Assembly: GCA_047459655.1 (NCBI GenBank)
Contig: JAJREF010000001.1
Span: 256,001 to 320,000 of the forward strand
DNA: 64,000 bases
Source: Rhabdochlamydiaceae bacterium
GTDB taxonomy: Bacteria; Chlamydiota; Chlamydiia; Chlamydiales; Rhabdochlamydiaceae
Reading direction: 5' to 3'
In this document: positions 33,908-43,251 of the stretch, one piece after another
How the letters are laid out: each line of letters opens with the position of its first letter
Numbering within the stretch: the stretch's first letter is position 1
The notes under the pieces: generated by a model
What the model saw: only the letters and a program-made list of their open reading frames with translations
The model's database searches: none
Told to the model about the DNA's origin: nothing
Made by a program: the position numbers and the translations under genes

Positions 33908-33996
33908 TATAAAACCTCCCTTTTAAAGAAGCTTATAACGAACCTGTGAAAAGCTGGCAATTAAAAGAAAATGTTTTAACATTTGACGAACCTTAA

Positions 33997-34158
33997 GGAG
34001 CCTCTGGATAAGTGCTTTGTCAGAGATTGCTGATCAATTTTTCGAAGAAGACGATTTTGGAGAGCGCAGCTAACATGCAGAATGTTCGTGAGTTCGAAAA
34101 ATTTAGTATTCGCAAAAATTGAAAGCAAGATTCGGCAAATGACTTGTCCAGAAACTCC
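33997..34158 (+). repeat. Type A palindromic element, copy 1 (162 bp)
   Basis: Imperfect 17-bp TIRs, palindromic along its whole length, flanked by TTAA/TTAA; highly similar to 37794-37955 and 43044-43205. Confidence 0.92.
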
Positions 34159-34225
34159 TTAAAGTGCAGAACTTATTCCTTCACTTAAGACATTTTCCTT
34201 GTTAAAAAAAAGCATGTATTTTTCC

Positions 34226-34706
34226 TTAGCCCTTCTCACATATACCATCACTTTGTGTGAAAATAGAATCTGATGGGAAAACAAGGCATAACAAGACCTC
34301 TCTAGCAACGCCAATGAAAAGCCCCGTCCTTGTAAAAAAAGATGGTATTTCCAACTGTAGACTCATTAGGAAACACCATCTAATTCTACTTACAAGAATT
34401 TTACCTGCAATAAAAGATAATCCTTCTACAACTAATGGTCTGATCTGCTGCGGCACTATGCATTTCCATCGGAAGATCATTACTATCAGGCGTTTCCAGT
34501 TGAGCTGTTAAAATAATAGAAGAAGCTATCCTTGCCGCTGCAGCTGATCCCGCAAGCCACATTGCCGTGTAAGCAGGAGCTACACAAACAGTTGATGCAA
34601 GAACAACGTAAGTAGCAGCTCCATCTACAAGAAACCTGCCTAACTGATGGCAGTGAGGATGAGTTTCCCGATCGATGTAACTTCTTATGCCGCTTATTAG
34701 ATTCAT
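34226..34706 (-). CDS. Small hydrophobic (Inc-like) protein, probably one gene split by a frameshift
   Basis: ORFs 34401-34706 and 34226-34480 overlap; long hydrophobic stretch GAATYVVLASTVCVAPAYTAMWLAG. Confidence 0.45.
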
Positions 34707-34707
34707 G

Positions 34708-35787
34708 TTACACCCCAGATCATGTCGTAACCATGGCCAGCCATATTAGCAAAGGTATCTGTAGAACCAATAGTCGCACCTACAAAAATAGCTCCACTGA
34801 CATTTCTAACCGTTTCGATCTGCGGTTTGTGAGTCTGGCAAATATTCTACTACAGTCTTTCCAAATTTTGCCTTAGGGGGATTAGCTGTTTCTGGAGTAC
34901 AAGTATCTTTCTCCAGGATTATTTATCCAGTCTTGATCATTCGGATCTTCTTGCTCATCTACATAAGCACCCACACTCGTTGCTTCTTCTAATGCATCGA
35001 GTCCTTTCCCAACCATATGAAGAGTTGGCTCATAAGAAAGAGCCGCTGCAATCAAACACGTAGCTCCGCTAACTTGCTGAACAGTTCGCAAAACTGGCTT
35101 ATAAGCCTTAATTTGGTTTGCTAATACAGTTCCAGCGCTGATTGGAGATCTAATAGCCAAAAACTCTTGAACTAGCTTATCGGTTGGGACCAGTCCATTA
35201 GCAGCCTCTGGCAATTCAGAAATAGTTGGTTGTGAAGGTTGCAAACCACTCAATGCTTCATCAAGATAGGAAACATCTTCTATATCCCTTTTAGGAACAT
35301 TCCCCAATAACGAACTCACCATAGTAGAAGCTATCCCGACATTTCCTTGAGAACCTCTTAGAAGGCTATGAACTCGATCTGCAATAGACAAGACCCCGAT
35401 CGCACCAACTGCCCCTGCAGCAACTGTAAATAATGTAGGGTTCTTCTTATAGTTTGCATAAGCCATAATGATTGCTAATAAGACATTCCCCAACGGAACC
35501 CCAATCAATGGAGTCAAAGCTGAAGCTCCCAAAAATGTAAGAAGAAAAACGGCCCTAATTTTTTTAGACAGGCTGCTCTCCGAAAGGATTTGAACAGCAC
35601 CTAAACCAATTCCTATATGCGTATATTGAGTCACTGCGACATAAGAAGTAAGCACACGCAAAGCTAAGCATGTAACGGTTGAGGAGGGCAGAATACTATA
35701 GACCTCTTCTAATCCCAATTTCTTCAGACCTCTTTCTAGGACTGATTGATCAGCACCAACTTTAACAGCAGCATTATCAACATCCAT
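34708..35787 (-). CDS. Hypothetical membrane protein (Inc-like), C-terminus frameshifted
   Basis: ORF 34882-35787 after AAGGAG RBS with several hydrophobic segments; open frames continue to about 34708. Confidence 0.6.
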
Positions 35788-36133
35788 AAAAACAACTCCT
35801 TTTTATTATTATAATTTAACTTTTATACTAATATTATATTATAATGTTTAATTGAAGTAAACAAATTTATATATAAAATCGCGTTTTAATTTTAATTAAC
35901 TTAATGCACATGTAAAATATTTTACGCACAAAAAAACAGCAGAATATACTCATAAACTATTGTCTATAAATAAGTTATAAACCATTCATTATCAAAGCGC
36001 CTATACCGATATTCCTTAAAATTACAACAAGCTTATTATCAATAGATTACAAAAGCAGTGCCCATTGCATTTGAAAAATTCGCAAAAACAGCACTACTCG
36101 ATTTAGACTCATATATGCTATACTTCCTCTCTT

Positions 36134-40493: not shown

Positions 40494-40540
40494 ACATTCT
40501 CACAGCTTTTGTATTACTTTCATGATTTCATCTAATTTGG

Positions 40541-42522
40541 TCAAGGGTGGAAGACACTGACCTCTTTTACAGATATATACCGTTGTTTCTTGGTTGATAG
40601 AGATTTTATCTGCATGTAGGAGCTGATTTTCCTTCCAAAAAACCGCTGCATGGGGCAAAAACAAGACCCCAAGGCATTGAGGATTTCTTCCTTGCCAGAT
40701 TTCTTGTCATTCAGCGCTATCACAACTGTGGGAGCCCCATTGTCTAGATAACGCTGAAGAGCCATCAGGTTGTAGCTTGCTGCAGGGGCAAATACGTCGA
40801 TATAGCCCTTGGCTGCTTTTAAAATGTCTTCTGCTTGCCTTAAATACCCTTCCTCCCAGGTGAGTTGATAGAGGCGGATAAGATTTTCTGCATGCACTCC
40901 GTTGCCAGAAGGCTCTGCGCCGTCATAAAAATCACACTTGCGTAAAATAAGAGGATCTTTCCCATCCGTCTGGTAGAAAGCTCCCTCTATCTCTTTGAAT
41001 TCTTTCTCAGCAATTTTTGTAAGGGTAATAGCCCACTCTAAAAACTCACCACCGGCACCCCTTTCAAAAAGTGAAAGAAGCCCTTTAATCAGATACGCAT
41101 AGTCTTCGAGTGTCGCAGAAAATTTGACATCTTTTGCAATGTAGCGGCGCAACAATGTAGATCCATTCCACATATTATTTTTTAAAAAAAGAGCCGCTTT
41201 CATTGCAGCTTCTAGATATCTTGGCTGATTGAAAGCCGTAGAGGCCTGTGCAAGCACATCGATCATGAGGCCATTCCAGGCTGTTAGGACTGTCTCATCT
41301 TTAAAAGGTCGCACTCTAGCAGATCTTCTTTCAAAAAGGGTCTTTTTCCACTCTTCTGAGTTTTTCTTTAAACACCCCTTCATCGAGCAACATAGAAGAG
41401 GCAAATTCTTCTATAGCAGCTTCTATATGAAGCACATTTCTCCCCTCGAAATTTCCTTGATACGTGACATCGAAAAGAGCTGCAAATCTCTCCGTCTTCC
41501 CCAGGAATGACATCTTGGATCTCTGCAGGGGTCCAGGTGTAATAAAAGCCTTCTTTCCCTTCTGTATCTGAATCTTCCCCTGAGAAAAAACCACCTTCTT
41601 TATATTGCAGCTCACGCAAAACATAATCGAGGGTATTTATTACAGTCTCTTTATATACATCTTTCCTAGAGAGTTTCCATGCTTCTAAATACGCTTTGGA
41701 TAAAATAGCATTATCATAGAGCATTTTTTCAAAATGGGGAATCGTCCACTGTTCATCGATAGCATACCGTGCAAATCCACCCCTAGATGATCGTAGATTC
41801 CACCTCTGCACATATGATCAAGAGTAAGATCGACGTAATAAAGAGCCCTGCTGTCTGCTTGCACCTTTGTATAAGCTAGTAAGAACTCTAGCTGGTACCC
41901 CAAGGGAAATTTGGGAACCCCTTTTAATCCTCCATTAACAGGATCGGCGATCTTAAAAATTTGCTGAGCCCCTTCAACAACCGATTCTTTAGAGGAAGTT
42001 CATGCCCCGTTGCATTCGCTGTGTGTGCAAAAATCTCAACTAGTTTAGCTGCCTCTTCAAGAAACACACTTCTTTCCTCACTTTGCCACATCTCACGGAT
42101 GTGAGAGATCAGCTGAGGAAAACCTACAAATCCATTTTTATTCACAGGGGAAGGTAAGTGATCGCAAAAAAGGGTTGTAAGTCAGGCGTTAAAACCAGAT
42201 TCAAAGGCCAGCCGCCTCCTGATGACATCAAGACCTGAGCAAATTCCATATAGATCGCGTTCACCTCAGGGTGTTCTTCTCTATCGACCTGAATATTGAC
42301 AAAAGCCTCATTCATCTGCTTAGCAATTTCAGGATTTTCGAAAGATTCCTTAGCCATCACATGGCACCAGTGACATGTCGAATATCCAATCGATAGAAAA
42401 ACGGGCTTATCCTGTGCCTTAGCCGCCTGAAAAGCATCAGAGCCCCAGGAATACCACTCAACAGGGTTACTTGCATGTTGTAAAAGGTAGGGGGATTTTT
42501 CCTTAGCTAACCTATTTGCCAT
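40541..42522 (-). CDS. Thioredoxin-domain YyaL/SSP411-family protein, frameshifted
   Basis: [63 protein letters not shown]. Confidence 0.92.
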
Positions 42523-42525
42523 TTC

Positions 42526-42934
42526 TTAAAGCACACCTAAAAATTTAGCTAAATACCAAGCTACAACCAAAATAACAGCTGCGATACCTGCCCAGATAAG
42601 CGACGGCATCCACTTTACCCCGCCTCCTAAACTGCCCCTGACTTCAAGCGTGCCAATTCCATAGGTAAAATCGTGCTTCTGAGGCTCCCCTTGAAAAACA
42701 AAGGGATTGTCTTGCATAATTCTGTCGATATCAACCCCTAAAAAAGATCCATACTGCCTTGTAAATCCTTGTGCATAGACAGCAGCTACATGCTCATTGA
42801 TCGTGCCCTCTTCAATAGCTTCTAAATGGCTTGTACGAATGGACGTCGCATTTTCTACTTCTTTCAGAGACAAGTTAAGCTCTTTTCTTTTCAGCTGATA
42901 CATCTCACCTAAAATGCTTTAATTCTTTACTCAT
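42526..42934 (-). CDS. RodZ-like helix-turn-helix membrane protein
   Basis: LSLKEVENATSIRTSHLEAIEEG, YAQGFTRQY, C-terminal TM helix; divergent from rnhC. Confidence 0.85.
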
Positions 42935-43043
42935 ATAACCACCTGTATTCAAACAGAGCACCAGCTTTCCTGATATTCCATTTTCTTTGTTAAAATCAAT
43001 AGAATACAGAGATGCTCAATTGATTATAAGAGGTAATTCATAA

Positions 43044-43205
43044 GGAACCTCTGGACAAGTGCTTTTGTCGGAGATTGCTGATCAATTTTTCGAAGATGAC
43101 GATTTTAGAGAACGTAGCTAACATGCAGAATGTTAGAAAGGTCGAAAAATCTAGTATTCGAAAAATTGGCAGCAAGATTCGGAAAATGAATTGTCCAGAG
43201 GTTCC
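43044..43205 (+). repeat. Type A palindromic element, copy 3 (162 bp)
   Basis: GGAACCTCTGGACAA...TTGTCCAGAGGTTCC flanked by the non-palindromic direct repeat ATAA/ATAA. Confidence 0.93.
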
Positions 43206-43251
43206 ATAAGATACTTCTTGTGTTTTTTTTCGGCGCTGCAAAAATCCAAAC

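Follow-up and report, generated by a model that had tools for sequence, protein, structure and literature searches.

The window analyzed here, a 64,000-nucleotide stretch of a Rhabdochlamydiaceae genome (G000:C1:256001-320000), carries three full copies of a 162-bp hairpin repeat (type A). [quoted passage not shown] Very probably, it is a MITE with TTAA-like 4-bp target duplications that was amplified by an IS5 transposase, whose intragenic copies were mostly purged and whose helper is now broken or missing from the assembly. Family size, target duplication, identity of the ends with those of an IS5 insertion sequence (IS), empty sites, a strand-specific hairpin with covariation and replichore polarity were all observed. 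As a MITE the element is ordinary and of a known kind; what stands out is its polarity with respect to replication and a core common to different end types. The candidate IS5 parent and the replication polarity are additions to an earlier reading of the window, made from its letters alone (the sequence-only reading).

The repeat in the window

The host genome (G000) is an assembly of 1.61 Mb in five contigs, 81.6% complete, which contains indel errors. Named homologs of the FKBP protein encoded next to the first copy belong to Rhabdochlamydiaceae and Chlamydiota (67-69% identity), bearing out the chlamydial host that had been proposed. The three copies and their 4-bp flanks were found exactly where the sequence-only reading had placed them, the second copy being inverted, together with a fragment of the same family (positions are those of the window):

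23529..23570, plus strand: left-end fragment of the same family, 42 bp, with TTAA directly before it
33993..33996: left duplication of copy 1, TTAA
33997..34158, plus strand: MITE copy 1, 162 bp, in intergenic DNA on the upstream side of the FKBP gene (33272-33907), in the majority orientation
34159..34162: right duplication of copy 1, TTAA
37790..37793: left duplication of copy 2, TTAA
37794..37955, minus strand: MITE copy 2, 162 bp, with perfect 16-bp terminal inverted repeats
37956..37959: right duplication of copy 2, TTAA
43040..43043: left duplication of copy 3, ATAA, which is non-palindromic
43044..43205, plus strand: MITE copy 3, 162 bp, 46 bp upstream of the rnhC start, in the majority orientation
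43206..43209: right duplication of copy 3, ATAA

The pairing along the whole length that had been described was confirmed by folding: copy 2 forms one hairpin (-92.6 kcal/mol, z -13.4), and none of 200 shuffles folded equally well. This copy is identical to that at G000:C5:54560 and is among the seven copies in the minority orientation. Copy 3 differs from the family majority by one inserted and one lost base. Both open reading frames (ORFs) that had been reported to cross the element exist, one of them (37755-37940) containing the peptide NAANMQNVSE; both this ORF and the other (43038-43340) are read from the minus strand of the genome, which corresponds to opposite strands of the inverted and direct copies. 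Neither ORF has a family match. ORF 43038-43340 also shares DNA with the start of rnhC, which is encoded on the opposite strand, and is therefore probably not a gene.

Family size, target duplication and age

A blastn search of G000 detected 84 loci. The genome-wide count that had been suggested as a check gave 62 full copies with lengths of 159-164 bp (162 bp in 46 cases) and a mean identity of 94.6% to the consensus, besides 28 partial loci. Identical 4-bp flanks were present in 40 of the full copies, in 27 cases TTAA. Matching pairs other than TTAA numbered 13, versus 1.2 expected by permutation (maximum of 7 in 20,000), and the 4-bp flanks are therefore true target duplications, as had been argued from the ATAA pair of copy 3. 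The possibility that the flanks form part of the inverted repeat was rejected, since among the 35 pairs with a non-palindromic flank, 13 were direct and none inverted. Duplications of other lengths were rare (5 bp in one copy of 62, 3 bp in four).

The proposed assignment to a non-autonomous MITE family thus holds: the element is short (162 bp), carries 16-bp terminal inverted repeats, target-site duplications and no transposase, its open frames lack family matches, and its copies are dispersed and numerous, with empty orthologous sites. The family had also been called active or recently active. Recent spread is supported by two pairs of identical copies and by the empty sites described below; current activity is not, since the one IS5 transposase that matches in this 81.6%-complete assembly is present twice, with the same break each time.

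Head-to-tail arrays of two or three copies occur at G000:C1:162939-163432, 424180-424509, 431377-431703 and 639870-640197, in which a single TTAA is shared between units; here the flank of the element itself served again as a target or was the site of a duplication. Other type A copies are split by different hairpin elements of 100-163 bp (G000:C2:90241-90534, C2:181789-182055 and C2:191707-191970), one of them TA-flanked, and the interruptions comprise at least two further small repeat families. A second hairpin family (type B, 163 bp) is represented at 57420-57582 of the window and by about 13 further full copies in G000. Its ends start with GAGACC, its duplications are mostly of 4-6 bp and its apical core is related to that of type A; one type B copy is nested inside a type A copy at C1:558109.

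A candidate parent of the IS5 subgroup

Members of the IS5 subgroup are about 1.0-1.5 kb long, with ends of the form GG(A/G), terminal repeats starting with GGA and a 4-bp YTAR-like or TTAA-like duplication. Genome-wide pairing of end motifs disclosed such an element outside the window (1182 bp, G000:C3:6644-7825), together with a 586-bp deletion derivative with the same ends (C3:54550-55135). The search for an autonomous element with matching ends, which the sequence-only reading had recommended, thereby yielded a candidate parent, with the reservation that the transposase is broken: the same stop and frameshift occur near codon 41 in both copies. The element encodes a single IS5-family DDE transposase. 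With 295 bits against NF033581, the model for IS5 (cut-off 140), this protein is the only match above the cut-off in G000; it also matches Pfam DDE_Tnp_1 and DUF772, and shares ~47% identity with plasmid-borne proteins annotated as IS5 transposases. An intact 322-residue homolog with the same end types (79% DNA identity) is found in G003, which represents another genus of the family. The flanks are TTAA/TTTA for the IS5 element, and TTAA/TTAA for both its derivative and the G003 homolog.

The two ends of the MITE agree with the right end of the IS for 18 and 16 bases, but with its left end for 11, which suggests that both were derived from one IS end type. A subfamily in the related genome G006 has both ends resembling the left end instead. 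The interior did not arise from the IS by deletion, since a blastn search with the IS5 element matched no MITE; with the MITE as query, plasmid and phage collections likewise gave no blastn match. From the shared ends and target, this IS5 transposase likely moved the MITE in trans. It would have multiplied a self-complementary passenger with the same IS end on both sides, and this passenger would have inserted at TTAA-like targets; most intragenic copies would then have been purged, the orientation bias would have been set at the replication fork, and the IS5 helper would later have broken, or may be missing from the assembly. The family would now be mostly stranded.

The element shares with IS5-subgroup ISs and their MITEs the GGA-starting terminal repeats and the 4-bp TTAA-like duplication. 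It differs from them in that both of its ends resemble the IS right end, its interior is an unrelated full-length hairpin rather than a deleted IS, and its replichore polarity reaches 89% (see below). ERIC, YPAL/RU-2, Correia, RUP/BOX, QMITE2 and an IS982-derived MITE of Cardinium are also small non-autonomous hairpins with target duplications and occasional ORF fusions, according to the accessible text of the sources (PMC9769881 among them), but have other ends and targets. No described chlamydial MITE was found in the open-access literature.

As had been stated, the window itself contains no matching transposase. Its IS4-family ORF (44998-46263) was considered as the mobilizer and rejected, since the ends of that element start with CTTGTC and its duplications are of 9-11 bp. 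The IS4-family element (44811-46296 of the window) has an intact-looking transposase of 421 residues and seven copies in G000 (99.5-100% identity, 9-11-bp duplications), and is probably active. The surroundings of the IS5 element (G000:C3:4500-10000) form a dense cluster of ISs: besides the candidate parent there are an IS4 end, IS1182- and IS5-like fragments, a copy of type B and an ISNCY transposase that looks intact.

Distribution in relatives and empty sites

Among 40 relatives searched, G006 (best identity 93%) and G015 (73%) carried matches. No copy was detected in the same-genus genomes G001 and G002, both of which are fragmented assemblies that may drop repeats. For 57 sites, a comparison could be made with 1.09 Mb of G002 (about two thirds of that genome). 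Syntenic flanks were found for 18 of them, and at 5 of these 18 the difference from G002 equaled, within 40 bp, the length of the element plus 4; the cleanest cases gave 164 versus 166 and 165 versus 165. Comparison with sister genomes, another of the checks suggested at the outset, thus provides the empty sites expected of a mobile element. In contigs of runs X1-X4, no joint was seen that skips one of the three copies of the window; X1, possibly the source sample itself, is not independent.

An end-to-end pattern scan of GTDB genomes returned 15 loci, comprising three family members (two already among the matches in the 40 relatives), six other hairpins and six chance-like matches. The six other hairpins (L092, L099, L103, L104, L105 and L106) are full-length, of 159-175 bp, with the same 11-bp ends, and come from distant phyla, their records being named Alcanivorax, Peregrinibacteria, Thiotrichaceae, Steroidobacteraceae, Kaiserbacteria and unclassified bacterium; most lack a TTAA-type duplication.

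Orientation with respect to replication

The cumulative GC skew of G000 placed the terminus at about 234.8 kb of C1 and the origin at about 101.2 kb of C5. The G-rich strand carries both 16S genes and 25 of the 34 tRNAs, and was on these grounds taken as the leading strand. A search of G000 for a dif-like motif found nothing and clusters of DnaA boxes were uninformative, so that the replichore assignment rests on GC skew and the strands of the rRNA and tRNA genes.

The same strand of the element lies on the C-rich strand (the leading-strand template) in 55 of the 62 full copies (89%, p 2.4e-10), and in 43 of 50 after collapsing of copies within 2 kb (p 2.1e-7). The polarity is real. Gene-strand bias was rejected as its cause, since ORFs in G000 are unbiased (737 versus 804) and the polarity is seen in all four arrangements of flanking genes. 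Mutational skew is an unlikely artefact, as the G-richer strand of the element (42 G, 30 C) would then not be expected on the C-rich strand of the genome. The seven copies of the IS4 element, used as a control, are split 3:4, and 10 of the 14 full copies of type B lean the same way as type A. The element strand placed in this way in the 55 copies is the better-folding one, a difference between the strands that holds in all 62 copies (-36.8 versus -30.3 kcal/mol as DNA, -73 versus -52 kcal/mol as RNA).

As to the cause of the polarity, the explanation that we favor, and consider about as probable as all others together, is that a transpososome associated with the fork inserts the element asymmetrically, guided by asymmetric sequence in its sub-terminal parts or its core. 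In the accessible text of PMC3971601, peptides of IS5a are described as binding the beta clamp. The transposase of the IS5 element starts with a QLSF motif that is similar to the beta-clamp consensus, a resemblance read from the predicted protein.

Less probable, though a serious competitor, is that the same MITE acquired its polarity after insertion: the stronger hairpin, when on the single-stranded lagging-strand template, would be deleted or cut more often, so that the other orientation survives. One strand indeed folds better in 62 of 62 copies, and it is the one kept off the lagging-strand template; the lean extends over different end types; and the folding of integron attC sites is altered by their orientation to replication, as far as the accessible text of PMC5371416 describes it. 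Partial copies, moreover, are less biased (19:8, one ambiguous), i.e., more often discordant than full copies (8 of 27 versus 7 of 62; Fisher p 0.06). Against this, discordant full copies are no younger (95.0 versus 94.5% identity to the consensus, p 0.84), and the bias is the same in the older half of the family (28 of 31) as in the younger (27 of 31). The weaker strand, too, forms a long hairpin. Selection at the RNA level is a rather improbable third cause.

Orientation linked to fork direction is also known for IS200/IS605, ISL3, IS91 and integron attC sites (accessible text of PMC3971601 and PMC5371416); here, in contrast, a 162-bp element without an enzyme has near-identical ends. Pneumococcal BOX, RUP and SPRITE repeats show 61-63% leading-strand placement, which mirrors coding bias according to the accessible text of PMC3049150, versus 89% without coding bias here. 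The main text of the survey of IS orientation (PMC3971601) makes no mention of "MITE" or "Chlamydia", and no report of a replication-oriented MITE was found in open-access text. An 89%-oriented, near-palindromic passenger in a genome unbiased for gene strand separates fork-coupled transposition from transcription-replication conflict, and offers a small testable substrate for the ways in which DDE transposition is tied to the replisome.

Hairpin structure and the wider class

Compensatory changes were detected in 31 of 61 pairs among 14 family members, exceeding all 500 shuffles and all slid controls, with the proviso that the 14 sequences are related and that arm-to-arm copying may yield part of the signal. 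G-U pairs and purine-rich internal loops favor one strand. A covariance model matched 24 of 149 other genomes of the order, in hairpins of 150-165 bp with varied ends and flanks (including TA-flanked ones) and a common apical core. The mean pairwise identity of 17 elements from 15 genomes was 0.63 and 0.68 in the arms of the core and 0.37 and 0.40 in the ends, a comparison that is partly circular in that the model itself selected the elements. This difference (~63-68% versus 37-40%) hints at constraint on the interior of hairpin MITEs in bacteria, which bears on RPE-, ERIC- and YPAL-type repeats. A literature search of open-access text found no paper on a conserved tandem-GA structure in MITEs.

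The polarity was also assessed by local skew in 80 stretches around model matches from nine genomes, the matches within a stretch not being independent. After removal of 22 of the 144 matches (opposite-strand duplicates, repeats from overlapping stretches and short matches), 122 distinct matches remained. Of these, 75 agreed with the polarity of type A and 37 ran against it, a weaker lean than in type A itself, and 10 were ambiguous. In eight genomes the lean has the same direction (G070 18:5, G034 16:5, the rest small). One family of hairpins in G034 (e.g., L116 and L182-L193) is young and TA-flanked, with several copies of identical score, and carries the same core between unrelated ends; the 16:5 lean counts all matches in G034.

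A broader conception, which we regard as unlikely, makes the element one member of a widespread class of strand-specific hairpin chassis of ~160 nt. Their conserved apical core with purine-rich internal loops would be carried by the ends of several unrelated transposase families, would fold in single-stranded DNA at the fork, and would itself decide in which orientation copies insert or survive. The ends so employed would include IS5-like GGA ends, TA-flanked IS630-like ends and others. The core would then be a functional module and not inert filler between terminal repeats.

Several observations weigh against an IS5-amplified MITE oriented at the fork. The 81.6%-complete assembly contains no intact IS5 transposase, so the link between MITE and IS5 is one of end and target identity only; G006 carries the MITE yet has no DNA match to the IS5 element; and the target 4-mer is not kept in the empty sites of G002, at ~80% identity. 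In the accessible text of PMC3971601 (Gomez et al.), where orientation biases of ISs are described as specific to family and phylum, IS5a has no consistent direction. The weaker bias of partial copies leans toward damage after insertion. One genome of the wider class, G164, leans the opposite way (8:13, with weak local skew), and the lean of the TA-flanked G034 family (16:5), which has other ends, implies that a transposase-specific cause is not required.

Coding sequence and the relation to RPEs

The sequence-only reading had likened the element to RPEs, i.e., coding palindromes that insert in frame into proteins. Its size and long stem-loop do resemble the published descriptions (about 105-150 bp with open frames, as given in the accessible parts of PMC2229807 and PMC10969869), the 162 bp being slightly longer, and like RPEs it is a stem-loop repeat of ~150 bp with open frames in an intracellular bacterium. 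Three of the six frames are open in the reference copy, versus a mean of 0.27 in shuffles, and one of these stops exactly at the far duplication. The apical core of type A may also bear a likeness to RPEs.

Membership in the RPEs is nevertheless largely refuted, and we consider it very unlikely. The RPE1-5 models of the conserved RPE peptide (TIGR01045 and TIGR03774-03777) match no copy, the two stray sub-threshold matches lying elsewhere. The three open frames have no match in NCBIfam or Pfam. Longer proteins bearing one of the frames number only two, both from the genome's own lineage, which is weak evidence. In contrast to RPEs, the element has a clear 4-bp duplication, and an insertion of 162+4 = 166 bp, not being divisible by three, shifts the frame.

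Its copies are, moreover, almost all intergenic. Apparent coding sequence holds 6 of the 62 copies, compared with about 70% of TTAA sites that lie in ORFs, so coding insertions are strongly depleted. The hosts are an M61 peptidase, a RhuM-family ORF, a pentapeptide-like ORF, an ATPase-like gene and a transposase fragment (the last three labels being read from the translations), and an ORF upstream of a YafQ-family gene. Five of the six insertions are truncations or C-terminal fusions. The sixth copy, of 161 bp at G000:C1:447432, reads in frame within ORF G000:C1:447294-447683, the one upstream of the YafQ-family gene; this reading hangs on the loss of one base in a run of A in an indel-prone assembly, which contigs of run X1 could not phase. 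The proposal that the element can insert into coding sequence therefore stands for six copies, which mostly truncate or C-terminally tag their hosts; in-frame insertion into conserved proteins amounts to no confirmed case and one candidate among 62.

A copy at G000:C1:200225-200386 lies at a TTAA that provides the stop codons of two convergent ORFs. A preference for stop codons was considered and rejected: 5 of the 62 copies are at a stop, which is no excess over the 224 of 2944 among TTAA sites outside ORFs.

Least probable of all, by a small step, is that the hairpin is a structured RNA selected by the host (an element of mRNA stability or cleavage) and repeated by chance; the 31 compensatory pairs of 61, the strand preference conferred by G-U pairs and purine-rich loops, and the conservation of the apical core across genomes would suit such an RNA, but target duplications, empty sites, a patchy distribution, and tandem and nested insertions do not, the orientation tracks the replichore rather than adjacent genes, covariation in a palindrome can presumably stem from arm-to-arm copying among 14 related sequences, and a search of Rfam gave no family at the gathering score and below it only a generic hairpin match.

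Other features of the window

Two direct repeats of 101 nt, 138 bp apart, are located at 55295-55533 within ORF 54946-55872, which has no Pfam match. Single-base indel differences from contigs of run X1 were seen at 39439, 40651, 43994, 34916 and 35531, and many split genes of the assembly (e.g., rnhC) are likely sequencing errors. A 35-bp stretch at 41707-41742 matches many unrelated contigs of runs X2-X4.

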